DNA from: a virus
Length of the DNA stretch: 64,000 nt
Reading direction: 5' to 3' (one strand)
Virus record (IMG/VR): IMGVR_UViG_3300014838_000014
Location: 32,001 to 96,000 of that record
This document shows, piece after piece, positions 3 through 31,717 of this stretch (its first letter is position 1; each line of letters starts with the position of its first letter). The position numbers were made by a program, and so were the translations under genes. Under the pieces are notes generated by a model. The model saw only the letters and a program-made list of their open reading frames with translations. It was not told the origin of the DNA and made no database searches.

Positions 3-206
3 GTTCGTGAGAATGAGCAACTCTGGTCAACACCGATGAATCGTTGGATTCCAATCGGTGTTCATCCCATGATGCTCATTTCAATCACCGACGAGTTCTA
101 TTCTTGGTTGACCCCGGAGTGGTTGTTCCACGCGCGCGTGGATGACATGGCGACCAACAATCGTCGGGAGCGAGAGCTGCGGGTTGTTCCACGCGCGCGT
201 GGATGA
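3..206 (+). CDS. Partial (5'-truncated) MKPGDLIEW-family small protein, copy 1; C-terminus encoded by CRISPR repeat-spacer-repeat
   Basis: Manual translation: VRENEQLWSTPMNRWIPIGVHPMMLISITDEFYSWLTPEWLFHARVDDMATNNRRERELRVVPRARG*; stop TGA (204-206) lies inside repeat 2. Confidence 0.85.
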   Translation, partial: VRENEQLWSTPMNRWIPIGVHPMMLISITDEFYSWLTPEWLFHARVDDMATNNRRERELRVVPRARG

Positions 207-335
207 CATGATGATCGGCTCGCGCATAGCTCACGGGAATGAGGTTGTTCCACACGCGCGTGGATGACGTGGATTGCCTGTCGTCATTTCGCCGGACAAC
301 AACAAATTGTTCCGCGCGAGTGCGTGGATGACGTT
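121..335 (+). CRISPR. Type I-E-like CRISPR mini-array: 4 repeats, 3 spacers
   Basis: Repeats 121-149 and 182-210 identical (GGTTGTTCCACGCGCGCGTGGATGACATG); 243-271 has 2 mismatches; ~305-335 degenerate. Spacers 150-181, 211-242, 272-~304 (32-33 nt) are unrelated; 61-nt period; hairpin TCCACG-CGCG-CGTGGA. Confidence 0.9.
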
Positions 336-350
336 ACAGTAATTACGTTT

Positions 351-379
351 GTGTAACTTGCGTCTGATTTGTGTAGTAT
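351..379 (+). promoter_or_regulatory. Sigma70-like promoter (GTGTAA-N17-TAGTAT)
   Basis: Same -35/-10 pattern recurs upstream of many operon heads. Confidence 0.55.
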
Positions 380-394
380 TTGAAATGAAAGAGG

Positions 395-1384
395 ATGTGT
401 GTAATGCGAACCGTGTTTTTGCTTCGTGGTCTTCCTGCTAGTTCTAAATCGACGTTTGCGGCAGATCTTTGTAAAAAGGAACCATGTCGATTTGCTCGCA
501 TCAACAGAGATGATTTAAGGAGCATGGTCGTTGGTTACGGCAACGACCCTCATTCGTTGGGTCGATCTGGTGAGGATCTCATCAGGAACTTCAAGGACGA
601 ACTCATTCGTCAGTCGTTCCGTGAGGGTTACGATGTCATCCTTGATGATACGCATCTCGTGCCACAAACGGTGAAGAAGCTTCATAAGTTGTTTGCATCG
701 ATCGGTGACGTCAAGGTCATTGAAAAGGTGTTTAACGTTGACGTTGAGGAGTGCATCGTTCGTGATTCGAAACGCACTGGATTCGCTCACATCGGTGAGA
801 AGATCATTCGTGATATGGCTCGTGGTGCAGGTCTCGATAAAAAGGGTAGGAAACTAGTTGATCGTGAAGTTTACTACGCTCCACGTTGGTCTCCAGGCGG
901 TGCAGGTGCAGATCCTGAGAGCATGTTGCAGGACGTTAGTCTACCAAAAGCAATCATCTGCGATCTTGATGGCACGTTGTCGTTGTTGAACGGCAGATCG
1001 CCTTACGATGCTTCGACGTGTGATAATGATCTACCCAACGTACCCGTGATTGAGTGCGTTAAAGCGATGGCCCTTCAGGGTTATAAGACGCTGTTTACGA
1101 GTGGCCGTGAGAATAAGTTTCGTGAACCAACGATCAAATTCATTGAACAACACTGTAACATCATCAATGATGCAACAAACGAGTTAAAAACTATAGATTA
1201 TGACCTGTTCATGCGTGCTACAGGCGATCAACGTAAGGATTCGATCGTGAAGAGCGAGTTGTTCGATGCAAACGTTGTTGGTAAATACAACGTGGTGTTT
1301 GTGTTGGATGACAGAAATCAAGTCGTCGATTTTTGGAGACGAATTGGGTTAACGGTGTTTCAAGTCGCTGAAGGGAATTTTTAA
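395..1384 (+). CDS. pseT: Polynucleotide 5'-kinase/3'-phosphatase (T4 PseT-like)
   Basis: N-terminal P-loop GLPASSKST with RINRDDLR; C-terminal HAD DLDGT...DDRNQVV. Confidence 0.9.
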   Translation: MCVMRTVFLLRGLPASSKSTFAADLCKKEPCRFARINRDDLRSMVVGYGNDPHSLGRSGEDLIRNFKDELIRQSFREGYDVILDDTHLVPQTVKKLHKLFASIGDVKVIEKVFNVDVEECIVRDSKRTGFAHIGEKIIRDMARGAGLDKKGRKLVDREVYYAPRWSPGGAGADPESMLQDVSLPKAIICDLDGTLSLLNGRSPYDASTCDNDLPNVPVIECVKAMALQGYKTLFTSGRENKFREPTIKFIEQHCNIINDATNELKTIDYDLFMRATGDQRKDSIVKSELFDANVVGKYNVVFVLDDRNQVVDFWRRIGLTVFQVAEGNF

Positions 1385-1387
1385 TTC

Positions 1388-1573
1388 ATGTGCGTTCGTG
1401 TCAATTGTTCTAAGTGTACCAAGCCTACGTTTAAAGGTTGTGGTAAGCACGTTGATGAAGTGTTGCGAGACGTACCCGTTACAGAACGGTGCGAGTGCAA
1501 CGTACGCTCGAACGGTGATAATTCTATAATCGATGTTTCGTTTGATTTTCCTGAGCAATTAAATGAATCTTGA
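1388..1573 (+). CDS. Small Cys-rich putative zinc-binding protein
   Basis: CxxC, GCGKHV and CxC motifs; tightly packed in operon. Confidence 0.6.
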   Translation: MCVRVNCSKCTKPTFKGCGKHVDEVLRDVPVTERCECNVRSNGDNSIIDVSFDFPEQLNES

Positions 1574-2369
1574 TACCAAGAAGTTTCCTCGTACTCAACA
1601 CATTGAAGGATCACGTTTGCAACACGGTGACGGTGATATGAAGGTTATACCTTGGAGTGATCTGAAACGTAGGCCTCTCGTTGTTTCAGAGAAGCTCGAC
1701 GGCGCGAACGTTGGAATCAGCTTCAGCGATCAAGGTGACCTTCTTTTACAGTCTCGTGGCCATTACTTACGCGGTGGACCACGCGAGAAGCAGTTTGATA
1801 TATTCAAACAATTGGCGAACGATAACGTTGATGTGTTGTTCGATGCATTGTGTTCACGGTACATTTTATATGGTGAATGGATGTATGCTTGTCACTCCAT
1901 TTATTATGATGATCTACCGTGTTACTTTCATGCGTTTGATGTGTATGATAAGGAACGTGATGCATTTTTAAGCACGGCACGCAGAGATGGGTTGCTTTAC
2001 GATGTGTATAAAACGTTCATCACGTTTGCACCGGTTTTAGCGTACCAAAGAACGTTCAATGACATCAACGATTTGCTTGCGTTGCTTGGAAACTGTGGGT
2101 ATTTTACCAATGAACGCACGTCGAACTACCTCATAACCGCCCATGATTCAGGATTTCTTCGTAAAGATGGTGAAAACAATGAGATTCAAGAAGCGCTGTC
2201 GTGCCGTGATTGGAGCCCATTGATGGAGGGTCTGTACGTCAAGTTGGAGGATGATGAACGAGTGTTGGGCCGTTGTAAGTACGTCAGATCATCATTTACG
2301 AACACGATCGCTGGAAATGAAATACACTGGTTCGATAGACAGATCGTACAGAACAAACTAAGGAACTAA
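1563..2369 (+). CDS. RNA ligase family protein
   Basis: KFPRTQH, nucleotidyltransferase motif I EKLDGAN, YGEW, FDVYD, EGLYVK. Confidence 0.85.
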   Translation: MNLDTKKFPRTQHIEGSRLQHGDGDMKVIPWSDLKRRPLVVSEKLDGANVGISFSDQGDLLLQSRGHYLRGGPREKQFDIFKQLANDNVDVLFDALCSRYILYGEWMYACHSIYYDDLPCYFHAFDVYDKERDAFLSTARRDGLLYDVYKTFITFAPVLAYQRTFNDINDLLALLGNCGYFTNERTSNYLITAHDSGFLRKDGENNEIQEALSCRDWSPLMEGLYVKLEDDERVLGRCKYVRSSFTNTIAGNEIHWFDRQIVQNKLRN

Positions 2370-2378
2370 GGGTACAAA

Positions 2379-2975
2379 ATGTCTGACAATGCTATGTGTT
2401 CAATGTGCTTCGAGTCTGGTCACTCCAACGTTGATTGCAAGGAGAACTTCGAACGCCTTGCGATGGTTGGTTCGATCGCTGCGATGATCGCTTCAAGGCT
2501 AAACTTCGTTCTGCCTGAGTGTAACAGCGCTAAACGAGGAGGTAAACCCACATCAACGATCAAGGTTGAACAGTACAAAGAGAAGTTTAAGTTTGTTGTT
2601 GTCTACTGCGAACTAGCAAATGCACACCTCGTTGATAACGCATGGATCGATCATCATGGCCCATCTTGCGTTGCTCCTCCATCAGATTTCGTGCGCAAGT
2701 GCCTTCACAACGATGCGTTTCACTACCGCAGGTGTTACCTTGACATGGTCAAACTCGTTCCTGATATGAAGCGAAGGATCGTTCATCGCGCAGACTTTAC
2801 TGAATTGTTATTTGACACCGTTGAACAACTAGACGCGTACCTTGCTTGTTTCAATGATTTAGGAAAGGCAGCTCTAATTCGTTCGTACAATGGAATAGAA
2901 ACGTTCAATGAACTATCGAACTTCTTACACGTAGTTTATTCGACTAACGAATTTCATGGTGCACGTCTGGTGTAA
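2379..2975 (+). CDS. Hypothetical protein
   Basis: 198-aa ORF in operon; N-terminal CxxCxxxGHxxxxC zinc-knuckle-like motif. Confidence 0.6.
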   Translation: MSDNAMCSMCFESGHSNVDCKENFERLAMVGSIAAMIASRLNFVLPECNSAKRGGKPTSTIKVEQYKEKFKFVVVYCELANAHLVDNAWIDHHGPSCVAPPSDFVRKCLHNDAFHYRRCYLDMVKLVPDMKRRIVHRADFTELLFDTVEQLDAYLACFNDLGKAALIRSYNGIETFNELSNFLHVVYSTNEFHGARLV

Positions 2976-2998
2976 AGCAACGTTTTATGGTGTAATAT
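2970..2998 (+). promoter_or_regulatory. Sigma70-like promoter (GTGTAA-N17-TAATAT), probably leaderless transcript
   Basis: ATG at 3005 is only 6 nt after the -10 hexamer. Confidence 0.6.
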
Positions 2999-3004
2999 CG
3001 TTTC

Positions 3005-3817
3005 ATGTCAACGTACGCATGGTTTACAGATTCGCACCTCGATCACCTTAAGGACGACGCTTCAAGGTTGATTGCGTTTGGTCAATCGCTTGTGAAGGAT
3101 AACCCGACGGGAATCTTTTGTAGCGGTGATTTAACCGTTTCGAGGAAGCTAATTTATCATCTATCGGCGCTGGAACGCATAACGCAGAGACCGTTTTACT
3201 TCGTGCTTGGAAACCATGATTACTATGGTGGTCAGATCGAATCTGTTCGGCAGGGAATGCGCTATCTTTCCACGTCAAGCCAACACCTGCGGTACATGCC
3301 AACGACGCCATACGTCTCGTTGAGTTCGAACACAGCATTGATCGGTCACGATTGTTGGTACGATGCGATGTACGGCGATTGGAAGACGAGCAATTGTTAC
3401 ATGAACGACTGGACTGAAATCGTTGACTTTCAGCTCGTCAACGGTGCGAAATCGACGATCGTTGCAAGGGCTCGCGAGCTCGCTCACGCAGGCGTCGAGC
3501 ACATTCAGAATGGTATCAAGGGCGCCGTGAAGTATCACAAATCGATCATCGTATTGACGCATTACGTGCCGTTTGAAGCGGCGCACACCTTCGAGGGAAA
3601 ATTAGCCGATAAATCATACGCTCCGTTCTATACGTGCAAGATGTTGGGTGATATGTTGATCGATGCAGCGAAGGCATATCCAAACGTTAACTTCAACGTT
3701 CTCTGTGGCCACACACATTCATCGTGGAACGGTAAAATCACCGCGAACCTAGAGTGTCACGTAGGAGGCACGCAATACAACGATCCGATCGTAAACGGAC
3801 TCATTGAGGTCGCTTGA
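3005..3817 (+). CDS. Calcineurin-like metallophosphoesterase
   Basis: DSH, GDL, GNHD, TH, GHTH motifs. Confidence 0.9.
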   Translation: MSTYAWFTDSHLDHLKDDASRLIAFGQSLVKDNPTGIFCSGDLTVSRKLIYHLSALERITQRPFYFVLGNHDYYGGQIESVRQGMRYLSTSSQHLRYMPTTPYVSLSSNTALIGHDCWYDAMYGDWKTSNCYMNDWTEIVDFQLVNGAKSTIVARARELAHAGVEHIQNGIKGAVKYHKSIIVLTHYVPFEAAHTFEGKLADKSYAPFYTCKMLGDMLIDAAKAYPNVNFNVLCGHTHSSWNGKITANLECHVGGTQYNDPIVNGLIEVA

Positions 3818-4087
3818 TTGTTTCCAGGTGATTTGATCGAATGGGTGTATGAAGATGATTTTCAACCTATTCGTGATGATGATTACCTTTTTTCAACGCC
3901 GATGAATCGATTCATCGGCGTTGGAAGTGATTATGGTCCTTATATTCTAATTTCAGTCACGCGTGAATTTTATTCATGGCTGACACCATGTGGATTGTTT
4001 CTTGCGCGTTTGGACGATGCAGTTCTGTACACAGAACAATGGACTGAAAAAAAAGTCCTGCCACGTGCCATCGAGAAATTTCAATGA
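3818..4087 (+). CDS. MKPGDLIEW-family protein, copy 2 (diverged; repeats eroded)
   Basis: MFPGDLIEWVY...GLFLARLDDA-11aa-VLPRA; relic repeats at 3993 and 4054 keep the 61-nt period. Confidence 0.8.
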   Translation: MFPGDLIEWVYEDDFQPIRDDDYLFSTPMNRFIGVGSDYGPYILISVTREFYSWLTPCGLFLARLDDAVLYTEQWTEKKVLPRAIEKFQ

Positions 4088-4347
4088 AACCCGGTGACCT
4101 CATCGAGTGGGTGTATAAATCTGATCCTCAACCCGTCGATGAGGATGTCGAACTCTGGTCAACGCCGATGCAACGTTGGATTCCCATCGGTATTCACCCC
4201 GCCGTCCTCATCTCGATCACCGATGAGTTCTACACGTGGTTGACGCTTGAGGGGTTGTTCCACGCGCGCGTGGATGACACGAGGATCTGGCCACGCAGGA
4301 CTCTGTCTCCCTTGGTTGTTCCACGCGTCGTTGGAGAACATCTATGA
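4084..4347 (+). CDS. MKPGDLIEW-family protein, copy 3
   Basis: Paralog; ATGA overlap with neighbours. Confidence 0.85.
   Translation: MKPGDLIEWVYKSDPQPVDEDVELWSTPMQRWIPIGIHPAVLISITDEFYTWLTLEGLFHARVDDTRIWPRRTLSPLVVPRVVGEHL
4253..4342 (+). CRISPR. Repeat-spacer-degenerate repeat unit inside copy 3
   Basis: Consensus repeat 4253-4281, 32-nt spacer AGGATCTGGCCACGCAGGACTCTGTCTCCCTT (4282-4313), degenerate repeat 4314-4342. Confidence 0.8.
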
Positions 4348-4613
4348 AACCCGGTGATCTCATCGAACGGGTGTATGAAGTTAATCCTCAACCCGTTAAA
4401 GAGAATGAGAAGCTTTGGTCGACACCGATGAGTTGCTGGGTTCCAATTGGTATTCAACCGGCCGTCCTCATCTCGATCACCGATGAGTTCTATGTGTGGC
4501 TGAACACAAAGGGTCTATTCAACGCACGCATAAAAGACACTGCTTTCAGATCGTTGGATAGGATGCCATGGGGAGGTTGTTCAATGCGTGCGTTAATGAT
4601 GAGTTTAACATAG
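4344..4613 (+). CDS. MKPGDLIEW-family protein, copy 4
   Basis: Paralog; degenerate repeats at 4513 and 4575; 33-nt spacer shifts the tail frame (GCSM...). Confidence 0.8.
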   Translation: MKPGDLIERVYEVNPQPVKENEKLWSTPMSCWVPIGIQPAVLISITDEFYVWLNTKGLFNARIKDTAFRSLDRMPWGGCSMRALMMSLT

Positions 4614-4629
4614 GTGTTGATCCGGTTCA

Positions 4630-4980
4630 ATGAAGTGTAAAGCGTTTCAATTCCATTGTATGATCAATGTCATGAAGAGAAGAGCACGTAAGTTCACGAA
4701 GACGCAGCTTGTCAATCCGGTACCCGTCAGTGACATCACTGACATCGATGAATTGCAACGTCGTTTCACGACTGCTTCGTTGCTCAAGCGAAACGCGACG
4801 ACGAGAAAAGGGTTCCTCGAGGACGCGATGCACCGTCACTGTGCTCAGGCATGGGATGCAAAGAAGAAGCAACGAATGGTTCGACGTTATGTTGCGTCTG
4901 ATAACGTGATCATGCAGAATTCCACGCTCATCGATGAACTGCAACACCGCCTACAGGAGATCAAGGGTTCATTAAAGTGA
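4630..4980 (+). CDS. Hypothetical basic protein
   Basis: ORF overlapping the methyltransferase start (GTGA). Confidence 0.5.
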   Translation: MKCKAFQFHCMINVMKRRARKFTKTQLVNPVPVSDITDIDELQRRFTTASLLKRNATTRKGFLEDAMHRHCAQAWDAKKKQRMVRRYVASDNVIMQNSTLIDELQHRLQEIKGSLK

Positions 4981-5774
4981 ATGTTGTTTGGCATTCACCG
5001 GCGATGGACGTGTTGTCATCCTTCGACGATGAAGTGATCGATCTTGTGTACATAGATCCTCCGTTTGGCACGGGATCGTGCCAGCGTATGAATCGCCGGA
5101 AGAACGGCGAGATCATTTCGGAGATGTCGTATAGTGATACCGTAACTGGGTACATCGACGTCCTGAGGGCCCACGTAGGTGAACTAATGAGGATTCTCAA
5201 GCCGACGGGTATGTTGTACCTGCACCTCGATCGACACAACGTTCACCGTGCAAAGGTGATGTGCGATGACCTAATCGGCGAACAGAACTTCATCAACGAG
5301 ATCATCTGGAGCTACAACTTCGGCGGTCGAGGCAAGGATCGCTTCGCGCCGAAGCACGACAATATCTTAGCATACGCAAAGGATGCAAATCAACACATCT
5401 TCAACCTCGACGAGGTCGATAGGATTCCTTACGTTGCGCCTGAGATGCAGTACGTTGGAAGAGAACGCGACGAGGCAGAGAAGCGGATTGCGCTCGGTCA
5501 GGTTCCGACTGACGTGTGGGACATTCCGATCATTGGGACGGCATCAAAGGAGCGCACAGGATATCCAACGCAAAAACCGCTGAAGCTTGCTTCGAGGATC
5601 ATCACCGCTTCATCACCGAAAGGAGGGATCGTTCTTGATTGCTTTGCAGGGTCAGGAACGACCGGTGCAGCAGCACATAAGAACGATAGGCAATTCGTTC
5701 TTGTCGACGATAACAAGCAGTCGATCGACGTGATGAAGAAGAGGTTCGAAGGAATCGAGGTGGAATGGCTATGA
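4977..5774 (+). CDS. DNA amino-methyltransferase (N6-A/N4-C, beta class)
   Basis: DPPF catalytic motif, YPTQKP, DCFAGSGTT SAM-binding motif. Confidence 0.92.
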   Translation: MNVVWHSPAMDVLSSFDDEVIDLVYIDPPFGTGSCQRMNRRKNGEIISEMSYSDTVTGYIDVLRAHVGELMRILKPTGMLYLHLDRHNVHRAKVMCDDLIGEQNFINEIIWSYNFGGRGKDRFAPKHDNILAYAKDANQHIFNLDEVDRIPYVAPEMQYVGRERDEAEKRIALGQVPTDVWDIPIIGTASKERTGYPTQKPLKLASRIITASSPKGGIVLDCFAGSGTTGAAAHKNDRQFVLVDDNKQSIDVMKKRFEGIEVEWL

Positions 5775-6262
5775 TCGGAAACATCGCCGTCTTTCCAGGA
5801 TCGTTTGATCCAGTGACGTACGGTCACATTGACGTAGTTTCTCGTGCCATGTCAATGTTCGATTACGTTTTTGTCATGGTCGGTAGGAACACAAACAAAA
5901 GCTACCTCTTCAACGATGCAGAACGCGGCGGAATGTTATTGAGTTGTTTGGCATATGCTTCAAACGTTCGTATCAGCGTGTTCGATGGATTGGTTGTCGA
6001 TTTTTGTCGTAGCGTCGGTGCTAAAACGATAGTTCGTGGTGTTAGGAATTCGAACGACGTTGAGTTTGAGATGCGAGCGTCGTACGTAAACAACGACGTT
6101 GCGTCCATAGACACGGTGTTCTTTCCAACTCGATCAACGTTGGCGTACGTTTCATCGTCGATGGTAAAGGAGCTAGCCTGGCACGGGGTCGACGTTAGCG
6201 GTTACGTACCACCGGTTGTGAACGAAGCGATCAAACTGGCCTATAAGAAAAAGCATGATTGA
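5771..6262 (+). CDS. coaD: Phosphopantetheine adenylyltransferase
   Basis: AVFPGSFDPVTYGH, IVRGVR, VSSSMVKELA. Confidence 0.9.
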   Translation: MIGNIAVFPGSFDPVTYGHIDVVSRAMSMFDYVFVMVGRNTNKSYLFNDAERGGMLLSCLAYASNVRISVFDGLVVDFCRSVGAKTIVRGVRNSNDVEFEMRASYVNNDVASIDTVFFPTRSTLAYVSSSMVKELAWHGVDVSGYVPPVVNEAIKLAYKKKHD

Positions 6263-6722
6263 CAAAGCGGCCGAGGTCGGTGGCATCTTTTCGTTGCTTG
6301 TCTTCGTTCACTTCATCGCTGATTGGGTTTTTCAATCGCACGACTCAGCAATCAGAAAATCAAAGGATACATGCGTTCGAGCGGTACATTGTTGTGTTTA
6401 CGTGGCGTTCTTCATCGTTCCAATTGGTTACTATTACTACGTTCGATCAACGTTACCATTGTATTACTCAAGAACGTTGTTGTTGTCATTGGTGACGCTG
6501 TTATGGGTGAGTCACTTCATCATCGACTCGTATGTTATAACGTTGCTTTGGGCTAAGCACATCAGGAAGTCCATTGCGTTCAATGCTGGCATCACAGATG
6601 AACAAGCGTTTGCTTATATGTTTAGCACGCCTGTTGGTGCAATACTCAACATCACGATCGATCAGTTACAACACGTTGCCGTTCTAATCGTTGTCGCGGT
6701 TGCGTTGGTGTTCTTTCAATGA
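6255..6722 (+). CDS. DUF3307-like membrane protein
   Basis: HFIADWVFQ, H, HFIID, DQLQH motifs on hydrophobic helices. Confidence 0.75.
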   Translation: MIDKAAEVGGIFSLLVFVHFIADWVFQSHDSAIRKSKDTCVRAVHCCVYVAFFIVPIGYYYYVRSTLPLYYSRTLLLSLVTLLWVSHFIIDSYVITLLWAKHIRKSIAFNAGITDEQAFAYMFSTPVGAILNITIDQLQHVAVLIVVAVALVFFQ

Positions 6723-6982
6723 AACCCGGTGACCTCATTGAATGGGTGTATAAATCTGATTCTCAATCAGTTAATAAGCATGAGGAACTTTGGTCGACAC
6801 CGCTGCGTCGCTGGGTTCCAATTGGTATTCAACCTGCGATCCTCGTTTCGATCACCGATGAGTTTTATTCTTGGTTGACAACAAGAGGGTTATTCCATGC
6901 ACATGTTCTCGACGTCGATGCAAGTCCACGCTTCGGTCGCGGGCCAGCTGTCGTTCCACGCGTTATCGGAGAACATCGATGA
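6719..6982 (+). CDS. MKPGDLIEW-family protein, copy 5
   Basis: Paralog; repeats 6888-6916 (degenerate) and 6949-6977; 32-nt spacer 6917-6948. Confidence 0.85.
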   Translation: MKPGDLIEWVYKSDSQSVNKHEELWSTPLRRWVPIGIQPAILVSITDEFYSWLTTRGLFHAHVLDVDASPRFGRGPAVVPRVIGEHR

Positions 6983-7233
6983 AACCAGGTGATTTGATCG
7001 AGTGGGTGTATCAATATAATTCTCAACCCGTTGATGAGAATGCCCAACTTTGGTCAACGTCGATGCAACGTTATATTCCAATTGGTGTTCAACCCGCCGT
7101 TCTCATTTCAATCACCGACGAGTTCTACATGTGGTTGACCCAGAAGGGGTTGCTCCACGTGCATGTGGATGACGCGAAGGCTCCAATGAGATATCGAATT
7201 ACCTCGTTGGTTGTTCCACGCGTTGTAGGATAA
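6979..7233 (+). CDS. MKPGDLIEW-family protein, copy 6
   Basis: Paralog; start refined to ATG 6979. Confidence 0.85.
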   Translation: MKPGDLIEWVYQYNSQPVDENAQLWSTSMQRYIPIGVQPAVLISITDEFYMWLTQKGLLHVHVDDAKAPMRYRITSLVVPRVVG

Positions 7234-7237
7234 CATT
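7148..7237 (+). CRISPR. Repeat-spacer-degenerate repeat unit inside copy 6
   Basis: Repeat GGTTGCTCCACGTGCATGTGGATGACGCG (stem TCCAC/GTGGA retained), 32-nt spacer 7177-7208, repeat 7209-7237. Confidence 0.7.
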
Positions 7238-7238
7238 G

Positions 7239-7493
7239 ATGAAACCAGGTGATTTGATTGAATGGGTGTATTCTAATTCTCAACCCGTTCTCGAAGATGA
7301 GAAGCTTTGGTCGACGCCGATGAATCGCTGGGTTCAAATCGGTGTTCACCCAATGATGCTCATTTCGATGACAGACGAATTATACGTGTGGTTGACACCT
7401 GATGGGTTGTTCAACGCACGTGTGGCTGACACCGGTGGCGTCATAGCTGGCGAGTATGGTGTTTTTCCACGCGTCGTCGGAGAACATCGATGA
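7239..7493 (+). CDS. MKPGDLIEW-family protein, copy 7
   Basis: Paralog; repeats at 7405 and 7460; 26-nt spacer (6 nt shorter, frame kept). Confidence 0.85.
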   Translation: MKPGDLIEWVYSNSQPVLEDEKLWSTPMNRWVQIGVHPMMLISMTDELYVWLTPDGLFNARVADTGGVIAGEYGVFPRVVGEHR

Positions 7494-7756
7494 AACCCGG
7501 TGACCTCATTGAATGTGTATATAAATCTGATTCTCAACCCGTTAATGAAGATGAGAAACTCTGGTCAACGCCGATGCAACGTTGGATTCCAATCGGTGTT
7601 CACCCTATGATGTTTATTTCGATGACAGACGAATTCTACACGTGGCTGACACCTGAGGGGTTGTTTCATGCGTGCGTGGATGATACAAGGAGTATGCGAA
7701 GGAAATACTGGGAGCACGTGGTTGTTAAACGAATGCATTGTTTTGTGCATCATTGA
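7490..7756 (+). CDS. MKPGDLIEW-family protein, copy 8
   Basis: Paralog; repeat 7659-7687, 32-nt spacer 7688-7719, eroded repeat from 7720. Confidence 0.85.
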   Translation: MKPGDLIECVYKSDSQPVNEDEKLWSTPMQRWIPIGVHPMMFISMTDEFYTWLTPEGLFHACVDDTRSMRRKYWEHVVVKRMHCFVHH

Positions 7757-7874
7757 TGCGAGTGCGTTTTGGTTGTTTTACAATTCAATGGTAGATGTTG
7801 GTCGATGATCTGTGTAAACCGTTGACGATTTCGCGATGTTGTAGATCCGCAAGTGCATGTCACCTATTTAACAC

Positions 7875-8828
7875 GTGACGTATGTATCACCAAAGGCACT
7901 AAAACGTGGAGACAACGTAGCGATCATTGCACCCGCTTCTCCGTTCAAATCAGATGAACTGGTCGCGGGGTTGGACATCGTCAGGGAGTGTGGATTGGAA
8001 CCTGTCTTGGGTCCCAACGTTCGTCGTCTAAGGACGATCGATATTCACGCCGCTCCGCTGATGGAACGCGTTGAGGAGCTGATGTGGGCGTACACCGACC
8101 CATCGATCTCAGGCGTCATTACGGTCACGGGTGGAATGGGTTGCGGTGAAACGTTGCCGTACCTTGACTTCGGTGCGATAAGAAGGTCGCGTCGAGTGTT
8201 GCTGGGAATAAGCGACATAACGGCGTTGAACAATGGAATTCTTTCGGGAGCTGAGTTGATCACTATCAACGGTCAATATCCATCGATTCGCGTCGATAAG
8301 GGCGATTCAGTGCGAGAGGCCGACAGCGAATCGCTTAGGACGGTGCTCGATCTCATGATGAGCGGCAAGACATGGCACGACGAGCCGTTCCGTATGAACC
8401 AACAGCTACCACGAACGGTGTCACCAGGTCGGGCCAGTGGGCACGTGATCGGTGGCAACCTCGACACGTTTTGCACGTTGATCGGAACGCCGTTCCTTCC
8501 AAGGCTGGACGGTGCAGTTCTATTTATCGAAGACGTATATAAACAAGGTGAAGCGATCGCGAGGTTATTAATACATTGTAAGCTTGCTGGAGTGTTTGAT
8601 AGAATAGCCGGCATCGTCGTTGGAGAGTTCATTGATGTACCAAAGAAGGAAGAAGCTAGAGAACCTTCGATTGACGACGTAATTCAACAATACCTTTCCA
8701 ATGGTCCGCCTTGTTCGTTTGGGTATAGCTTCAGTCATGGTGACATCACGATTCCAATTCCGATCGGTTCTCAGTGTGAGATGGACGCAGACACAGGAGA
8801 AGTTTCGTTCGATTTTTCAATGTTGTAA
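7875..8828 (+). CDS. ldcA: LD-carboxypeptidase (peptidase S66)
   Basis: PKALKRGDNVAIIAPAS, GISDIT (Ser), GGNL, LFIED (Glu), FSHG (His). Confidence 0.9.
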   Translation: MTYVSPKALKRGDNVAIIAPASPFKSDELVAGLDIVRECGLEPVLGPNVRRLRTIDIHAAPLMERVEELMWAYTDPSISGVITVTGGMGCGETLPYLDFGAIRRSRRVLLGISDITALNNGILSGAELITINGQYPSIRVDKGDSVREADSESLRTVLDLMMSGKTWHDEPFRMNQQLPRTVSPGRASGHVIGGNLDTFCTLIGTPFLPRLDGAVLFIEDVYKQGEAIARLLIHCKLAGVFDRIAGIVVGEFIDVPKKEEAREPSIDDVIQQYLSNGPPCSFGYSFSHGDITIPIPIGSQCEMDADTGEVSFDFSML

Positions 8829-8858
8829 ACTTTGATTTTGTGATGTATTAATTTTAGC

Positions 8859-12783: not shown

Positions 12784-13250
12784 AGATGACCATGAAAATC
12801 AACGTACACGACCTGAGGAAGTTGGTCAGCGAACAGCTCGGCGAAGAAGAGCTGGCGTTGGAACCCAAGGATGCTGGAAGCGGGAATTGGCGTGATGATC
12901 GGATCGTCGAGCTTGAGGCACTGCTTCAGGCCGCCCACGGTGAGATTTCTGAGCTTGAGGGTAAGATCAAGCAGATGCAGCATGCTGCGGTGTCTAGGGC
13001 ACCAGCAGGGGCTGCTACGGGGGTTCCCGGCGCTCCTAGGGCTCAGCGACCGATGAAGCAACAGTACAGGATCTATGGACGTAAGGGCGCGAACGTCGCG
13101 CACACTCGTATTCATGGTCAGGCGTATGGTGCTCCGCCCAACACGCGGTTCAAGTCCGGCGAAGAAGCCTCCCTTGAGAAGGGCGTCGATGGCAAGATTC
13201 ACGTTCGATCAGGCGATCGAGACCAGGTTTGGGATCCGATCGACGGATAA
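12780..13250 (+). CDS. Hypothetical protein: leader motif, coiled coil, C-terminal HTR.xGQAY domain
   Basis: C-terminal ~60 aa paralogous to 37662-37844 and 24698-24913. Confidence 0.75.
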   Translation: MKMTMKINVHDLRKLVSEQLGEEELALEPKDAGSGNWRDDRIVELEALLQAAHGEISELEGKIKQMQHAAVSRAPAGAATGVPGAPRAQRPMKQQYRIYGRKGANVAHTRIHGQAYGAPPNTRFKSGEEASLEKGVDGKIHVRSGDRDQVWDPIDG

Positions 13251-19090: not shown

Positions 19091-20234
19091 GTTTTACGTT
19101 TACGTTGATTCAACAACTGAAGAAACACCAAGACCTTTTTACGTTGGAAAGGGCACCAAAGACAGGATTGATAATGAACAGCGAAACAAACGTCATGTAT
19201 TTGTTTCAAATAAACACGGCTTTTCAAGAAGCGTTGTTTTCACGACTGAAAATGAAATTGAGGCGCTTTCACACGAAGTGAAGTTGATTGCAGAACTTCA
19301 CACCTACGTCAAGGATCCATTATCATCGTCGATTTCAGCAAATTTTACGTATGGTGGCGAAGGCGTTATTGGTATAAATGAACGTTGGGTTGAACAGTAC
19401 AAAGACGGCGTTTTAGTCAAAAAATTTGCTAACTTTCATGAAGTTGCCGAACACTTTGGATTTACTAAGTCTGGCGTTGTTAGCAATGCATTCTCTGGTA
19501 GGTGCGTTTTTCCAGTCGTGATGCGAGAATTTACGTGGAACGTTGAACCATCGAGAAAACGTAAGTTGTCATCGACACATGGAAATTCAATGATTATTCT
19601 CGAATTAAATCCGCAAACAAATGAAGTAATAAAAGAATATGCGTCAATCACAGAAGTTGTAAAATCAAAGAAAATAATGTACTCATACTTGATGAACGCA
19701 ATTCGTTCGACCAATCCAAAAGCAATGGAGAAGTTGATCGCTAAAACGGGTAGCAAGTGGGCATTCAAGGATGAAAAACACAACGTAGGAAAAATTCATA
19801 ATTCGAACGTTCAATCACCATCAGGTCCTAAACCCGTGGTCGTTGTTTATTCAACTGGTATAAAACGTATATATCCTTCAACTGTCAGGGCAGCACAAGC
19901 GTTGGGCATTAATCCAAATGAGTTGCTAGCGATTCTTCACGGTGATAACATTCAACGATCTGATTTTACGTGTTCATTTCTGCACGAAAGCGATCATCGT
20001 AAGGACGTTGTTAGGTCGAAGGAATGGATCAATGCGCTTGCTGGCATAAATGGAATTCAAATCGTGAAATTGGATAAGTCTGGAAACGTCATAGAAAAAT
20101 TCAACTCAATTTCAGAGGCTGAACGTCGCGAAGGGTTTATGCATCATGAAATTTATAAACAATTGAGAATTGATAGCGTTTTGCATGCCAATGGGTTCAC
20201 CTACAAACGTGTTGAGGAGCAATCGAATGTCTAA
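19083..20234 (+). mobile_element. Free-standing GIY-YIG homing endonuclease with NUMOD1-like repeats, inserted in dnaE
   Basis: FYVY...PFYVGKG...R...E...N; repeated IKEYASI/IEKFNSISEA modules; AT-rich. Confidence 0.85.
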
Positions 20235-21852
20235 AATAACCTCAATCAATTCCGTCGCCACGTCGTTTGACGACATCAAATCGTGGTACGAAACGCACCT
20301 TGCACCAAACGTCATTGACTTTGATGATCAGAAACCCTACGAAGTCTACTCTGAGGGACGGTTTTGCGGTATATTCCAGTGCACAGGCCAAGGTGCCCAA
20401 CGATTGTTTAAAAAAGCAAAACCCAAGAGCATCGTTGACATTGCAGCGTTGACGTCGATATATCGACCGGGTCCTCTTGCGGCGCACGTCGACAAGCTTT
20501 GGCTTGAACACGAACAATCGCCGTACGATTGGGGTCATCCATTGATAAATGAAACGTTGAAAAATACTCGAGGATTATTGGTGTTTCAAGAATCTGTGAT
20601 GCACCTCGTCAACAAGGTTTCAGGGTTTCCGATGGCTGAGACCGATGAGGTTCGACGTGCCATCATGAAGCGTAGCATTTCTGGTGGTGAAGCTGCCAAA
20701 AAGAAAATGCAGGAACTTGAGGACAAGATTGTTGCCGGCGCAGTCAAGAACGGCGTTCCTGAGCCAACGGCACGTAAGATGTACGAAACGATATGCTTTA
20801 TGTCAGGTTATGGTTTCAATTGTGCGCACGCCGTTGCCTATAGCATCGATTCGTTTTGGTGTGCGTGGCTTTTAACGTATTATCCTGATGAGTGGGTCTG
20901 TTCATATCTCGAGTCCATGTCTACGACGCCCGATAAACGAGCAAAGGCATTCGGTGAGGTGAAGTCGTTGGGTTATCAGATCGTATCGATCGATGTCAAT
21001 TACGCAAAGAAGGGTTGGACAGTTCTTCCCGGCAAGAAGTTGATGCCATCAATGTCATCGTGCAAGGGCGTCGGTGAATCGGCCGTAGATGAGATCATCT
21101 CCATGCGTCCGATTGAATCGATCGAGCGGTTGCTGTGGAACGATGACGGATCATGGCGTCCAAGCAAATTCAATTCCAGAGCGCTCGGTACGTTGATCAA
21201 GGTCGGTGCGTTCGATAGCCTCGGTTGCGTGGGTCCTGATAGAGTGTTCAAGAACTACAAACACATGCATGAAACGCTTCTTGGTTCGTATGAGGAAACC
21301 ATCACACGCAGGCGAAAGGGCATCGAAGAGACGGTCGTCGTCTCTCGTGACCATTCTACTCTGCTCAAGCGATCGACAAAGAAGGATCCACATGAGGGTC
21401 GACGTAACTTCTTTGAGCTTGCCCGTGGTCTCGCTGAAACGTGTACGGAGGAATGGACGAACCGCGAAAAGGCAGAGCTATATGCAGAGGCGTTTGGAAC
21501 GGTTGACGTCATGATGATGTTCGATCAGACGTTGTTCGATAGGCTTGCTGAGAAGAACGTTCGATCTATCGAGGAGCTTGAGGTCGGTGAGAAGGACATC
21601 GTCTGGTTTGTCACCGTTGTTTGTGCGGCGAAGAAAGGCAAGGGCGTACCTTCAGCAGGAACCATGAAGAAGACCAAGAACGGTAAGTCGTACGCTCAAC
21701 CGTTCGTCACCGGTCCGTCAGGAAAACCGCTACGCCTCAACGTATGGAGCGCGAAGGAGCTATTGCCGACGTATAAGCTGTGTTTTGCTGAGGTTGACAG
21801 GAATGACTACGGTTTCTCAACGACACAGTGGCGAATCAAGGAGATCGCATAA
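20227..21852 (+). CDS. dnaE: DNA polymerase III alpha subunit, C-terminal fragment
   Basis: GIFQ, SIYRPGP, TRGLLVFQE, GYGFNCAHAVAY, KGVG, GAFDS; own GAGGAG RBS. Confidence 0.92.
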   Translation: MSKITSINSVATSFDDIKSWYETHLAPNVIDFDDQKPYEVYSEGRFCGIFQCTGQGAQRLFKKAKPKSIVDIAALTSIYRPGPLAAHVDKLWLEHEQSPYDWGHPLINETLKNTRGLLVFQESVMHLVNKVSGFPMAETDEVRRAIMKRSISGGEAAKKKMQELEDKIVAGAVKNGVPEPTARKMYETICFMSGYGFNCAHAVAYSIDSFWCAWLLTYYPDEWVCSYLESMSTTPDKRAKAFGEVKSLGYQIVSIDVNYAKKGWTVLPGKKLMPSMSSCKGVGESAVDEIISMRPIESIERLLWNDDGSWRPSKFNSRALGTLIKVGAFDSLGCVGPDRVFKNYKHMHETLLGSYEETITRRRKGIEETVVVSRDHSTLLKRSTKKDPHEGRRNFFELARGLAETCTEEWTNREKAELYAEAFGTVDVMMMFDQTLFDRLAEKNVRSIEELEVGEKDIVWFVTVVCAAKKGKGVPSAGTMKKTKNGKSYAQPFVTGPSGKPLRLNVWSAKELLPTYKLCFAEVDRNDYGFSTTQWRIKEIA

Positions 21853-21918
21853 CGCAGTGTAAACGTGTTGTGAGTCGTGGTACATTTTTGATTGTTGAGG
21901 AGGTACGTTGAAGTGTTT

Positions 21919-24018: not shown

Positions 24019-24046
24019 AGTCACACGTTTGATTACGTTACTTACG

Positions 24047-25741: not shown

Positions 25742-25790
25742 TTCCCTAAATAGGTTGTAAATGAAACAGATCAAGTGTAAGATTGTGTGC

Positions 25791-28815: not shown

Positions 28816-28831
28816 AGGAGAATCGGAACAC

Positions 28832-29395
28832 ATGACATGCATATGCGGTATCGTCAAGGGTGGAACGGTGTGGCTCGGTGGCGACAGCGCCGCAACTAAT
28901 GGAGGAAACCTAGATCGAACGATCATCAATGACCACAAGGTGTTCGTCAGGGAAAACGTTGCCTTCGGCGTTTGTGGATCGCCGAAGGTCATGGATGCAA
29001 TCGCTCACGTTCTTGAACTTCCCGTTCACCAACCCAACGTTAGCAACCGTGCGTACCTCGTCGGTGAATTAGCACCTGCGATGACGAACGTCTTGAAAAA
29101 GCTTGATTGCGTTGTTGTTGATCCATCGTACGGAACTTGTTTTAACGGTGCTATGTTGATCGGATACAATGGAGCTCTGTATCAGATGGAGGGTAATTTC
29201 CAACTCATTCAAGCCGCTCGAGGTTACGATTCCGTCGGTTCTGGATCACCTGCTGCCCTAGGATCGCTTCGATCAACGCGTGGTTGGAGCAATCCACGCA
29301 AGCGAATCCTCGAGGCACTGAAGGTCTCCTCTGAGGAGAACGCTGGCGTTGCGCCTCCGTTCAATGTTGTCCACGTGAAGAGCATCACGTCGTGA
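28832..29395 (+). CDS. HslV/proteasome-beta-like Ntn peptidase, paralog A
   Basis: MTCI..GGDS, KVF, GSGS..ALGSL. Confidence 0.75.
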   Translation: MTCICGIVKGGTVWLGGDSAATNGGNLDRTIINDHKVFVRENVAFGVCGSPKVMDAIAHVLELPVHQPNVSNRAYLVGELAPAMTNVLKKLDCVVVDPSYGTCFNGAMLIGYNGALYQMEGNFQLIQAARGYDSVGSGSPAALGSLRSTRGWSNPRKRILEALKVSSEENAGVAPPFNVVHVKSITS

Positions 29396-29979
29396 CATGC
29401 ATCGTTGGAGTCGTTGATGGTGACCATGTATTGATCGGTGGCGATTCGTTAGAAAGCGATGCATATGCCAGCGCAGAAGGCGATTCGTACGTGCTTCAAC
29501 GCAACGATGAAAAGGTGTTCGTGCTCGGTGAGTTCGTCGTTGGGTTTTGTGGTAGCTATCGCGTTGGTCAATTGATTCGTTATTCGTTCAAACCAAATTC
29601 ACCGAAGGCGAACGATGATAACATAATGTCATACATGGTGAATGAATTCATCAATGTGTTACGAACAACGATGGAACAACACGGAACGTTGAAAACTGTT
29701 GAAGGAGAGGAATCGTTCGATGCTCAACTTCTCGTTGGATGGCAAAATAGGTTGTTTGTGATCGGTGATGATTTTAACGTTGGAATCATGAAGGATGAAT
29801 GGTGTGCAATCGGTTCTGGATCCCAATTCGCATTGGGATCGTTGCACACGACGAGCGAATTAGAAGATCAGATTTCGACCGATGAAAGGATCAAACACGC
29901 CCTTAGAGCAGCATCGATGTACAGTCCATGGTGTAAGGGACCATACACGTTGGTGAGGACGCCAATCAACAATGAGTAA
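29392..29979 (+). CDS. HslV/proteasome-beta-like Ntn peptidase, paralog B
   Basis: MTCIVG..GGDS, KVF, AIGSGSQFALGSL. Confidence 0.75.
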   Translation: MTCIVGVVDGDHVLIGGDSLESDAYASAEGDSYVLQRNDEKVFVLGEFVVGFCGSYRVGQLIRYSFKPNSPKANDDNIMSYMVNEFINVLRTTMEQHGTLKTVEGEESFDAQLLVGWQNRLFVIGDDFNVGIMKDEWCAIGSGSQFALGSLHTTSELEDQISTDERIKHALRAASMYSPWCKGPYTLVRTPINNE

Positions 29980-30547
29980 ATCACCCACGCTTACGGTTTA
30001 TACGGGACCAATGTTCTCTGCAAAGACGTCTAGGTTGTTGCTCGATCTCGAAAGGTTCAAGCACCAACACAGGAACGTCATGGCGTTCAAACCGGTGATC
30101 GACGATCGTTACAGCGACGTGGACATCGTTTCACATATGGGTTGGCGTTACCCGGCGATCGGCATAACGGAGGGTGCTGACGTCCTGAAGCTGCTTGCAG
30201 AACGAAATCATCCATCTGACGTTGTTGCCGTTGACGAAGCATTCATGGTCGTTGGCATCTCCGAGGTGCTCATCTGGTTGTATCGCACGGGCATCGACGT
30301 TGTCGTCTCGACGCTTGACTTATCCTCGACTGGGAAACCATTCAAGGAAGTTGAGAAGCTCCTACCGTGGGCCACGAGGGTCGAGAAGTGCGTTGCTGTG
30401 TGTGCAGAATGTGGTCGCGACGCGGCATACACGCATAAAAAACTGGTTTCCGGGAACGAGATTGAGATCGGTGGCGCTGAGTTGTACGAACCCAGGTGTT
30501 TGTTTCACCATGCGTTGATCTACAAGAGACCGAAGCTTGGCGAGTGA
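29972..30547 (+). CDS. tdk: Thymidine kinase
   Basis: GPMFSAKT, VDEA, CAECG, IGGAELYEPRC. Confidence 0.93.
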   Translation: MSKSPTLTVYTGPMFSAKTSRLLLDLERFKHQHRNVMAFKPVIDDRYSDVDIVSHMGWRYPAIGITEGADVLKLLAERNHPSDVVAVDEAFMVVGISEVLIWLYRTGIDVVVSTLDLSSTGKPFKEVEKLLPWATRVEKCVAVCAECGRDAAYTHKKLVSGNEIEIGGAELYEPRCLFHHALIYKRPKLGE

Positions 30548-30551
30548 TTCG

Positions 30552-30887
30552 ATGAAACCTGGCGACCTCATCGAATGGGTGTTCAAACGTAATTCTCAAC
30601 CTGTCGATGAGGATGCCGAACTCTGGTCAACGACGATGAAGCGTTGGGCTCCAATCGGCGCTCATCCCATGATGCTCATTTCGATGACAGACGAATTCTA
30701 CATGTGGTTGACCCCGAAGGGGTTGTTCCACGCGCACCCGGATGACACGCCGGTTCCGATCCCGTTAATCACATCGACTCGGGTTGTTCCGCGCGCGTGG
30801 ATGACACAGACAACTACGTGCGAACCTGGTGGCGCGAAGACAGTTATTCCACGCGACTTATCGGAGAACATCGATGAAACCAGGTGA
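30552..30887 (+). CDS. MKPGDLIEW-family protein, copy 9 (reads through two spacers)
   Basis: ...LFHAHPDDT-PVPIPLITSTR-VVPRAWMT-QTTTCEPGGAKT-VIPR... Confidence 0.8.
   Translation: MKPGDLIEWVFKRNSQPVDEDAELWSTTMKRWAPIGAHPMMLISMTDEFYMWLTPKGLFHAHPDDTPVPIPLITSTRVVPRAWMTQTTTCEPGGAKTVIPRDLSENIDETR
30721..30872 (+). CRISPR. Mini-array: 3 repeats, 2 spacers
   Basis: Repeats 30721-30749, 30782-30808 (2-nt deletion), 30842-30872 (degenerate); spacers of 32 and 33 nt. Confidence 0.8.
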
Positions 30888-31140
30888 CCTCATCGAATGG
30901 GTGTACAAATGTAATTCTAAACCTGTTCACGAGAGTGAACAAATCTGGTCAACGCCGATGCAATACTGGATTCCAGTCGGCATTCATCCTACGATCCTCA
31001 CTTCGATCACCGACGAGTTTTATGTGTGGCTGAACCCGAATGGTTTGTTCCACGCGCGCATGGACGACACGTATGCAAGGGTGGGATGGAAGACGGGCAA
31101 GGAACGGGTCGTTCCACGCGTTGTCGGAGAACATCGATGA
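30874..31140 (+). CDS. MKPGDLIEW-family protein, copy 10
   Basis: Repeats 31043-31071 and 31107-31135; 35-nt spacer. Confidence 0.85.
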   Translation: MKPGDLIEWVYKCNSKPVHESEQIWSTPMQYWIPVGIHPTILTSITDEFYVWLNPNGLFHARMDDTYARVGWKTGKERVVPRVVGEHR

Positions 31141-31397
31141 AACCAGGTGATCTAATTGAGTGGGCGTACAATCGTAATTTTCTACCCGTTCGTAAGAATG
31201 AGGAACTCTGGTCAACGCCGATGAAACGCTGGATTCCAATCGGCGTTCATCCCATGATGCTCATTTCAATCACTGACGAGTTTTGTTATTGGTTGACGCC
31301 CGATGGGTTGTTTCACGCACGCAGGGATGACACCTCTGCAATCGCCGATCCCATGACGATGCGCGCCGGTTGTTCTATATGCGTGTGGATGACATGA
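31137..31397 (+). CDS. MKPGDLIEW-family protein, copy 11
   Basis: Repeats 31306-31334 and 31368-31396; 33-nt spacer. Confidence 0.85.
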   Translation: MKPGDLIEWAYNRNFLPVRKNEELWSTPMKRWIPIGVHPMMLISITDEFCYWLTPDGLFHARRDDTSAIADPMTMRAGCSICVWMT

Positions 31398-31413
31398 GTG
31401 TCGGAGAACATCG

Positions 31414-31671
31414 ATGAAACCAGGTGACCTCATCGAATGGGTGTACAAACGTAATTCTAAACCTGTTCACGAGAGTGAACAAATCTGGTCAATGTCGATG
31501 AAGAATTGGATTCCAATCAGTGTTCGTCCCGCAGTCCTCATCTCGATCACCGACGAGTTCTACGTGTGGCTGAACCCAAATGGGTTGTTCCACGCGTGTA
31601 GGGATGACACAGGAGTCCACCACCGTGGGCTGTACAGCCGGACTCCGGTTGTTCCGCGCACGCAGGGATGA
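31414..31671 (+). CDS. MKPGDLIEW-family protein, copy 12
   Basis: Stop TGA inside repeat 2 (VVPRTQG*). Confidence 0.85.
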   Translation: MKPGDLIEWVYKRNSKPVHESEQIWSMSMKNWIPISVRPAVLISITDEFYVWLNPNGLFHACRDDTGVHHRGLYSRTPVVPRTQG

Positions 31672-31717
31672 CACGATGTTCGTGTGGCCTGTAAACGAGC
31701 GAGGAACGGTTGTTCCC
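31583..31717 (+). CRISPR. Mini-array: 2 full repeats plus 1 partial repeat, 2 spacers
   Basis: Repeats 31583-31611 and 31647-31675, partial GGTTGTTCCC at 31708; spacers of 35 nt and 32 nt. Confidence 0.8.

Follow-up and report, generated by a model that had tools for sequence, protein, structure and literature searches.

The stretch of DNA analysed here (the window) comprises 64,000 nucleotides (nt), positions 32,001 to 96,000 of the record IMGVR_UViG_3300014838_000014; coordinates below are window positions unless named otherwise. It comes from a large, cas-less peat-soil phage and has a GC content of 47.6%. Twelve paralogous open reading frames (ORFs) of about 85 codons each lie in the clusters 3-334, 3818-4613, 6719-7756 and 30552-31735; they start at positions 3 (cut by the window edge), 3818, 4084, 4344, 6719, 6979, 7239, 7490, 30552, 30874, 31137 and 31414. 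Every one of them traverses a repeat resembling those of CRISPR arrays, then a spacer of about 32-33 nt, and enters a second repeat. As detailed below, the ORF-proximal spacer is under a real constraint, exerted at the level of translation or of the protein, that keeps it free of stop codons.

The ORFs consist of a core of about 58 residues (MKPGDLIEWVY...ISITDEFYxWL), the motif GLFHARVDD, 11-13 unrelated residues, and VVPR followed by either ARG-stop or VVGEHR-stop. Copy c0 has four repeats and three spacers, and c8 and c11 have three repeats each. The copies, numbered in the order of their starts, and their arrays are as follows.

c0 ORF, 3-206, plus strand: 5' end cut by the window edge; tail ...WLFHARVDD-MATNNRRERELR-VVPRARG-stop; the full-length form is P0007
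c0 mini-array, 121-334, plus strand: repeats 121-148, 182-209, 243-270 (one mismatch) and 305-334 (degenerate, with a 3-nt insertion)
c0 spacers, plus strand: 149-181 (translated), 210-242 and 271-304 (older)
c1 ORF with fossil array, 3818-4087, plus strand: repeat relics 3993-4020 and 4054-4081, still 61 nt apart; spacer 4021-4053; hairpin gone, peptide motifs GLFLARLDD ... VLPRAIEKFQ retained
c2 ORF, 4084-4347, plus strand: perfect repeat 1, 4253-4280; spacer 4281-4313; terminal-type repeat 2, 4314-4341, translated as VVPRVVGEHL and bearing GGAG and an ATGA overlap into the following copy
c3 ORF, 4344-4613, plus strand: repeat relic 4513-4540; 34-nt spacer 4541-4574; repeat 2, 4575-4602, read in the third frame (GGCSMRALMMSLT) because of the 62-nt spacing
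c4 ORF, 6719-6982, plus strand: decayed repeat 1, 6888-6915; spacer 6916-6948, identical in the near-identical relative L001; terminal-type repeat 2, 6949-6976
c5 ORF, 6979-7233, plus strand: repeat 1, 7148-7175 (G-U pairs keep the stem); spacer 7176-7208; repeat 2, 7209-7236
c6 ORF, 7239-7493, plus strand: repeat 1, 7405-7432; short spacer 7433-7459 (spacing 55 nt); repeat 2, 7460-7487
c7 ORF, 7490-7756, plus strand: repeat 1, 7659-7686; spacer 7687-7719; strongly decayed repeat 2, 7720-7747 (VVVKRM...)
c8 ORF, 30552-30887, plus strand: repeat 1, 30721-30748; spacer 1, 30749-30781; repeat 2, 30782-30807
c8 distal part, plus strand: spacer 2, 30808-30841; terminal repeat 3, 30842-30869; the ORF continues through both spacers
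c9 ORF, 30874-31140, plus strand: repeat 1, 31043-31070; 36-nt spacer 31071-31106 (spacing 64 nt); terminal repeat 2, 31107-31134
c10 ORF, 31137-31397, plus strand: repeat 1, 31306-31333; 34-nt spacer 31334-31367; repeat 2, 31368-31395, followed by a terminal-repeat stub with a Shine-Dalgarno sequence
c11 ORF, 31414-31671, plus strand: ends ...VVPRTQG-stop within repeat 2
c11 mini-array, 31583-31735, plus strand: repeat 1, 31583-31610; spacer 1, 31611-31646 (translated); repeat 2, 31647-31674
c11 distal part, plus strand: older spacer 2, 31675-31707; decayed repeat 3, 31708-31735

GLFHARVDD and VVPRARG are encoded by one 28-nt DNA element, G-GTTGTTCCACGCGCGCGTGGATGAC-AY, which is read in two frames and recurs after 61 nt. 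As it is the DNA that is similar and not the peptides, which come from different frames, the repeat is one of nucleic acid (DNA or RNA) and not of protein. Indeed, repeat plus spacer amounts to 61 nt, i.e. 1 modulo 3, so that repeat 2 is read one frame on from repeat 1: repeat 1 gives GLFHARVDD, the proximal spacer 11-12 residues, and repeat 2 VVPRARG, with the stop at its own GGATGA. Note that it is only in the +1 frame that the GGATGA of the repeat (e.g. in 182-209) gives the ORF a stop. Where copies lie in tandem, the terminal-type repeat extends to a Shine-Dalgarno sequence and an ATGA overlap with the following copy.

The spacing is 61 nt in most window copies; it is off by a multiple of 3 in c6 (55 nt), c9 and c11 (64 nt each), and by +1 (62 nt) in c3 and c10, which have lost the VVPR frame. 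The frame is thus kept in 10 of the 12 copies, as an earlier sequence-only reading of the window had stated. Its further observation, that off-size spacers differ by multiples of 3, holds for the first three of these copies and not for the other two; in the larger set introduced below, in which 42 of 67 units have a period of 61 nt, such spacers make up 9/16 of the off-size first spacers and 3/9 of the older ones, which is not significant.

A 2-nt CG deletion inside the repeat core CGCGCGCG recurs at window positions 30782-30807, in a related locus (L051:751-942) and in the protein P0028. In the latter two it affects repeat 1, so that the ORF stops at the repeat's own GGATGA; in repeat 2 of c8 it removes the stop, so that the ORF continues through spacer 2.

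The canonical repeat forms a hairpin of 5-6 base pairs with a 4-nt loop and a folding energy of about -10 kcal/mol (-10.1 for c0). In one lineage the stem is doubly changed yet perfect again (CCGCGCG/CGCGCGG), i.e. compensated. The hairpin has been lost in decayed copies, including most of those in the window, and most window arrays are fossils whose 'spacers' have become ordinary coding sequence. If Cas6e-type cleavage took place at the hairpin base (between ..CGUGG and AUGA), the cut would fall one base before the stop codon of the ORF. Such a cut would strip the stop codon from the messenger RNA, so that processing into CRISPR RNA (crRNA) would create non-stop messages, and processing and full-length translation of one transcript would be mutually exclusive. 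Contigs from RNA libraries extend over both ORF and array and run uncut across c8 (30712-30862); contigs cannot show processing, and DNA carry-over is possible.

The array-carrying family is rare, with 47 proteins in a collection of 5.8 billion, and it recurs on jumbo-phage contigs with GC contents of 37-59%. The relatives comprise IMG/VR contigs of 46, 216 and 324 kb, an 89-kb contig binned with a Bdellovibrionota assembly, and 20 Joint Genome Institute (JGI) metagenome stretches recovered with the repeat as a DNA pattern. The longest catalogued contig of the window phage itself is 128 kb, and this phage is present in peat and permafrost metagenomes from at least 17 studies; comparison of the window with GenBank phages by blastn gave no match. 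From the window and the related jumbo-phage contigs we curated 43 arrays with 67 spacers, 43 first (ORF-proximal) and 24 older, and the protein catalogue adds about 20 further independent tails. The arrays were detected by their DNA repeats and not by ORFs, so that openness of the first spacers is not an artefact of selection. A broader repeat pattern yielded a single match in IMG/VR, L058, which was rejected as due to chance, and a second scan of that database with a protein pattern added only a duplicate (L067). One locus, L043 (Ga0315273_10003125), shows the ORF-array module in a phage of 37% GC; its repeat variant ends in GGATGAAGC and its spacers reach 68% GC. Phages of very different backgrounds thus share the module.

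The arrays of the larger set contain 2-5 repeats and 1-4 spacers. Inside an array the repeats are identical; from one array to the next they are not, and every array has a decayed distal repeat. In L043 and L051, private variants are common to the ORF-proximal repeats, in keeping with a copying of repeat 1 whenever a spacer integrates. Of 38 fresh spacers from intact arrays, 27 begin with G, the following base being unbiased, a known signature of type I-E acquisition. Spacer GC is 57-76% whatever the GC of the phage (37-59%). At the orthologous loci L016 and L039, which are 86% identical downstream and 78% identical in the ORF core, the two and one spacers, respectively, are entirely different, while the near-identical relative L001 retains the window's spacers; spacer turnover is therefore real but slow. 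Two spacers of the locus L056 are, by sequence match, pieces of bacterial chromosomal genes: spacer 1 has its matches in GTP cyclohydrolase II/ribBA genes, and spacer 3 in the stretch around the WPGNVRE motif of sigma-54 activators, each in many genomes.

With these properties the units look like real type I-E-style, cas-less mini-arrays. In the type I-E system of Escherichia coli, the repeat is 28-29 nt long and contains a short GC hairpin and, after it, a handle of 7-8 nt; the spacers are 32-33 nt long and owe their first G to the protospacer-adjacent motif, growth takes place at the leader-proximal end, and the last repeat is degenerate. The phage units resemble it in the repeat, hairpin, handle and spacer sizes, in the first-base G, in polar growth (as judged from anatomy) and in the degenerate distal repeat. 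They differ from it in that no adjacent cas genes were found, the leader is a protein-coding gene, and the arrays stay at 1-4 spacers.

That the repeats are instead a coding or recombination motif of a hypervariable family, and the spacers cassettes swapped between paralogs, we regard as very unlikely. Such a view would accommodate the finding of neither cas genes nor a host array with the same repeat, the failure of window positions 1-8000 to match any CRISPR-DR family in Rfam, and the loss of the hairpin in most window copies. It is however at odds with a 28-nt palindromic repeat separated by unique 33-nt inserts, with up to five repeats per array, with polar decay, and with inserts that tend to start with G and come from bacterial genes. 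Furthermore, no spacer is common to different paralogs, and none matches the 346 kb formed by the window and the other phage loci; related-virus targeting was hence not observed either.

Two observations concern variation of the unit. P0025 and P0027, two alleles from relatives of the 46-kb contig, have identical cores and loops of 13 and 15 residues that differ in sequence and share the same ends, which looks, from the sequences, like an indel-rich change with the frame preserved. L031 and L033 (IMGVR_UViG_3300028654_000384, near 195.9 and 211.0 kb) have one intact repeat and no second one, the ORF ending 10 or 2 codons past ..REDD; they have the look of a gene fused to a solitary repeat unit.

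The sequence-only reading had noted that all 16 window spacers are free of stops in the frame that follows GAT GAC NNN. This is the case for the 12 first spacers and for the four older ones (210-242, 271-304, 30808-30841 and 31675-31707), and the older-spacer peptides MIGSRIAHGNE, DCLSSFRRTTT, DNYVRTWWRED and MFVWPVNERGT were reproduced. By frame, 16, 10 and 13 of the 16 spacers are stop-free in the forward direction and 14, 14 and 12 in reverse, the stop totals being 0 in the ORF frame versus 8, 3, 2, 2 and 4 in the other five. Against composition-preserving shuffles, 16/16 has P = 0.0005-0.001, and a model of composition by codon position expects 5.7 stops where none is seen (P = 0.003). Significance against composition nulls (P = 0.0005-0.003) thus stands, but it is weaker than the title of that reading suggests, since P is only about 0.03 when the other frames, open at an empirical rate of about 0.8, serve as the reference. 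Moreover, 12 of the 16 spacers lie inside ORFs, so that only the four older ones test more than the statement that an ORF has no stops. The openness of the 12 is a signature of live ORFs, and that of the four (P = 0.14 when taken alone) is within chance for GC-rich, gene-derived DNA.

In the larger set, the first spacers are open in frame 0 in 43 of 43 cases, compared with 28-38 of 43 in the other frames, the stop counts being 0 in frame 0 versus 19, 8, 7, 5 and 10. Shuffles give P = 6e-8 to 1e-6. Under the codon-position model 13.0 stops are expected in frame 0 and none is seen (P = 2e-6), and frames 1 and 2 behave as the model expects (19 seen versus 17.7, and 8 versus 13.7). None of the 47 catalogued family proteins ends inside spacer 1; two short ones, P0028 and L051:751-942 (the latter seen in DNA), stop in repeat 1. 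Three inserts in contigs from other samples, first taken as new ORF-proximal spacers, were rejected as evidence of acquisition: at 85% likeness they are mapped paralogs, one of them being the tail of P0008, a protein listed only on the 128-kb contig, apparently the window's own, and absent from the copies in the window. Frame 0 is free of stops in each of the three, which were excluded from the counts for want of a rank in the array.

These figures bear on the view that GC-rich coding pieces are poor in stops in every frame, so that 16/16 carries no biological message. As a general account we consider this unlikely. The other five frames are indeed open in 10-14 of the 16 window spacers, and the four older window spacers do not depart from chance, but such a view does not predict 43 open first spacers out of 43 with 13 stops expected, the lack of any catalogued protein ending in spacer 1, or the frame-specific substitution patterns described next.

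Among window paralogs the ratio of nonsynonymous to synonymous substitution rates (dN/dS) is about 0.25, for the core and for the nine codons of repeat 1 alike, with dS of about 0.8. When substitutions in the first 13 bases of the repeat are sorted by base index modulo 3 (0, 1 and 2), repeat 1 peaks at 0 (38/14/14) and repeat 2 at 2 (20/6/26). The peaks are the third codon positions of each repeat's own frame (hand chi-square about 10.9, P about 0.004). In the fossil copies c1, L022 (IYPRK), L023 (VTPRQ) and L032 (VRPRV), a motif x-x-P-R has been kept after a loop of about 12 residues, and the DNA repeat is gone. Two AlphaFold models, built with 43-44 sequences (pLDDT 87, pTM 0.74), show an all-beta domain in which the repeat-1 and repeat-2 segments are strands, that of repeat 2 confidently so, and the spacer stretch is the only low-confidence loop. 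The protein is accordingly modelled as an SH3-like beta-barrel of 85 residues with the spacer as a loop. A Pfam search with this small protein gave no match, and Foldseek returned nothing below E = 0.5; the best VIA-align Z score, 4.5 (Tudor, FeoA, SH3, KOW), was rated as a common arrangement only, i.e. generic small-barrel similarity.

Selection could also act on translation as such, the peptide being irrelevant, if ribosomes had to get as far as repeat 2 or the ATGA overlap for coupling to the next copy, for prevention of Rho-dependent polarity on the array and the genes downstream, or for modulation of Cas6 access to the hairpins. The tandem terminal-type repeats carry GGAG, with the stop overlapping the next ATG (4344, 6979, 7490, 30874 and 31137), as coupling would have it, and the last strand is missing from some paralogs. 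Copies that stand alone, with no paralog downstream (c0, L016, L039, L046, L054 and L056), are however equally open, synonymous changes have left x-x-P-R in place where the DNA repeat has decayed, and the repeat-2 segment is a confident strand in both models. We therefore judge this to be quite improbable.

For the older spacers the picture is less clear. In frame 0 they are open in 22 of 24 cases versus 18-21 of 24 (about 81%) in the other frames, with 2 stops versus 8, 3, 4, 5 and 6. The deficit has P = 0.019 with mononucleotide shuffles, 0.058 with dinucleotide shuffles, 0.031 with the position model and about 0.14 against the other frames, and frame 2 shows a like deficit under the position model (3 seen, 6.7 expected, P = 0.10). 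For these spacers alone, chance and composition are the explanation that we somewhat favour. The two frame-0 stops are in older spacers of L051 that are flanked by perfect repeats, which refutes a strict filter at every acquisition; a partial filter may or may not act on older spacers. In 12 of 67 spacers, i.e. 1 in 6, the frame inferred for the source gene is the ORF frame, which is no enrichment, and the amino-acid composition of the loop in frame 0 is near that of the other frames, with somewhat more aromatic residues. Any filter would thus be one of stop avoidance or readability, and not one for particular peptides.

The sequence-only reading had interpreted openness as a filter on all spacers at the protein level, and had proposed a six-frame stop count in related genomes against a composition null. 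In that count the first spacers pass clearly and the older ones are undecidable. The proposed filter accordingly survives for the ORF-proximal spacer, where 43/43 open spacers and 0/47 proteins ending there are joined by the frame-specific substitutions, the dN/dS of about 0.25 and the modelled strand; for the older spacers it lacks support in the form proposed, given 22/24 against about 81% elsewhere and the two stops in L051.

No Cas1 or Cas6e match was found in the related contigs G001-G003 (G002 being 86% complete) or the assembly G005, nor any Cas6e match in G004, which was searched for Cas6e only; the sensitivity of the Cas6e search is limited, as its control was positive in only 1 of 14 control genomes. 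No Cas domain was found in the 30 window ORFs scanned (at least 265 amino acids; 34 ORFs have at least 230), smaller Cas proteins not being covered by the scan. Except for chance ones (L052 and L058), the repeat-pattern matches examined are 3' ends of family ORFs or parts of such short arrays, and in the longer arrays of L043 and L051 a family ORF lies upstream of some units. The L051 arrays had no usable protospacer in plasmids and only noise-level matches in 124 genomes of the phylum of G005, and the L034 array had no usable protospacer match in its own assembly, G005.

Altogether, the explanation that we favour, with a probability of roughly 0.68, is that the phage carries a multicopy beta-barrel gene whose 3' end is a type I-E-style mini-array, the proximal spacer of which is read as a loop and kept open by selection. 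On this account the arrays would grow by polar, Cas1-Cas2-type integration at the ORF side, as their anatomy suggests. The integrated DNA would be foreign, GC-rich and mostly bacterial, and the integration enzymes would presumably be those of a host (a type I-E-like Cas1-Cas2). Each integration would replace the segment that encodes the loop, and variants with a stop in the proximal spacer, hence lacking the last strand, would be lost or overwritten. With the loop replaced in a protein under purifying selection and stop variants lost, every proximal spacer seen would be open, with no strict protein-level filter at each acquisition.

Several points weigh against this explanation. When only arrays with perfect repeats are considered, 17 of 17 first spacers are open, but P is just 0.006-0.024. 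In L053 (reverse complement, around 5827 of Ga0315284_10048252), a family ORF with a perfect repeat 1 runs into ..VDEIWAAL-TAG, and the contig ends 20 nt further on, before any repeat 2; this may be a first spacer with an in-frame TAG, and counting it as a stop raises P for the perfect-repeat arrays to about 0.1. Translation of the spacer tail is something that we infer from sequence statistics and predicted folds. In some paralogs the repeat-2 strand is missing, as in L031 and L033, with a stop 2-10 codons after the solitary repeat, and in P0028 and L051:751-942, with a stop in repeat 1, so that not every copy needs the last strand. No long array with this repeat and linked cas genes came up when 185,579 species genomes, IMG/VR and the JGI metagenomes were scanned for the exact pattern, near-matches not being covered, and any use of the arrays as crRNA is hypothetical. 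Finally, a comparison of the window arrays (110-340 and 30700-31730) with the same 124 genomes of the G005 phylum gave noise-level matches only, and source genes for the window's own spacers were not found.

A bolder extension of the favoured explanation is that the phage uses CRISPR spacer integration to generate protein diversity: captures of foreign DNA at repeat 1 would rewrite the 11-12-residue loop between the last two strands, variants that can be read would be retained, and the roughly 18 differently looped copies per genome would form a repertoire, e.g. of binders or decoys, while the same transcripts could yield crRNAs against the host chromosome. We regard this extension as doubtful. 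Diversity-generating retroelements use a reverse transcriptase and a template repeat. If the extension were true, the arrays would be their CRISPR-driven counterpart, with both systems, each encoded by a phage, serving to rewrite a short segment at the surface of a folded protein; by analogy, the segment would here be replaced by captured foreign DNA through CRISPR integration.

Short viral arrays are known from other systems. The Sulfolobales viruses SPV1 and SPV2 carry cas-less mini-arrays, for which adaptation and effector proteins of the host are presumed to be needed (Medvedeva et al. 2019, PMC6858448; review PMC11656645), and the arrays described here resemble them in having 1-4 spacers in a viral genome in which no Cas proteins were found. 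Those of SPV1 and SPV2 are however non-coding, their repeats are identical to those of host arrays, and their spacers target related viruses (PMC6858448, PMC11656645), whereas here the arrays are fused in frame to a conserved gene with the first spacer apparently translated, no host array with the repeat and no related-phage match of a spacer were found, and the two traced spacers are bacterial chromosomal. RNA anti-CRISPRs (Racrs) are phage-borne mimics of CRISPR repeats without cas genes, consisting of non-coding solitary repeats (Camara-Wilpert et al. 2023, PMC10651486). The few paralogs with one repeat only (L031 and L033) are reminiscent of them, but most units consist of repeat, spacer and repeat, with spacers of canonical length, inside an apparently translated ORF. 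Cracr arrays are non-coding, multiplexed type I-E-style phage mini-arrays that use the host Cascade, with pseudo-spacers (21-24 nt in the I-E example) that match cas or toxin promoters (Liu et al., bioRxiv 10.1101/2024.10.29.618823); by contrast, the spacers here are 32-36 nt long, lie inside genes and bear an acquisition signature.

Our literature searches turned up no account of an array that is fused to a gene and translated together with it. CRISPR arrays count as non-coding, while the type I-E-style unit described here appears, from its sequence and the models, to form the last beta-hairpin of a conserved phage protein, its two repeats being read in two frames. Spacer acquisition would thereby be linked to protein sequence, which raises the question of whether CRISPR integration can diversify a protein. 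Other testable questions are how translation and crRNA processing would share one transcript, and why cas-less jumbo phages collect pieces of bacterial genes. In practical terms, short ORF-fused arrays escape standard CRISPR finders and are annotated as hypothetical proteins.

Elsewhere the window has the gene content of a large phage, with polynucleotide kinase-phosphatase, RNA ligase, DNA methylase, homing-endonuclease-like ORFs, a split DnaE-type polymerase, thymidylate synthase, superoxide dismutase, a DnaJ-domain protein and a GroEL-like chaperonin. The polymerase (16841-21849) is split into a part with PHP and NTPase domains (16841-19087) and a part with finger and HhH domains (20170-21849), between which lies an ORF (19047-20231) with weak, sub-threshold matches of NUMOD endonuclease type. 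Lastly, a direct repeat of 66 nt, 82% identical between 13098-13163 and 37695-37760, joins two distant genes and is probably a domain common to two paralogous ORFs.

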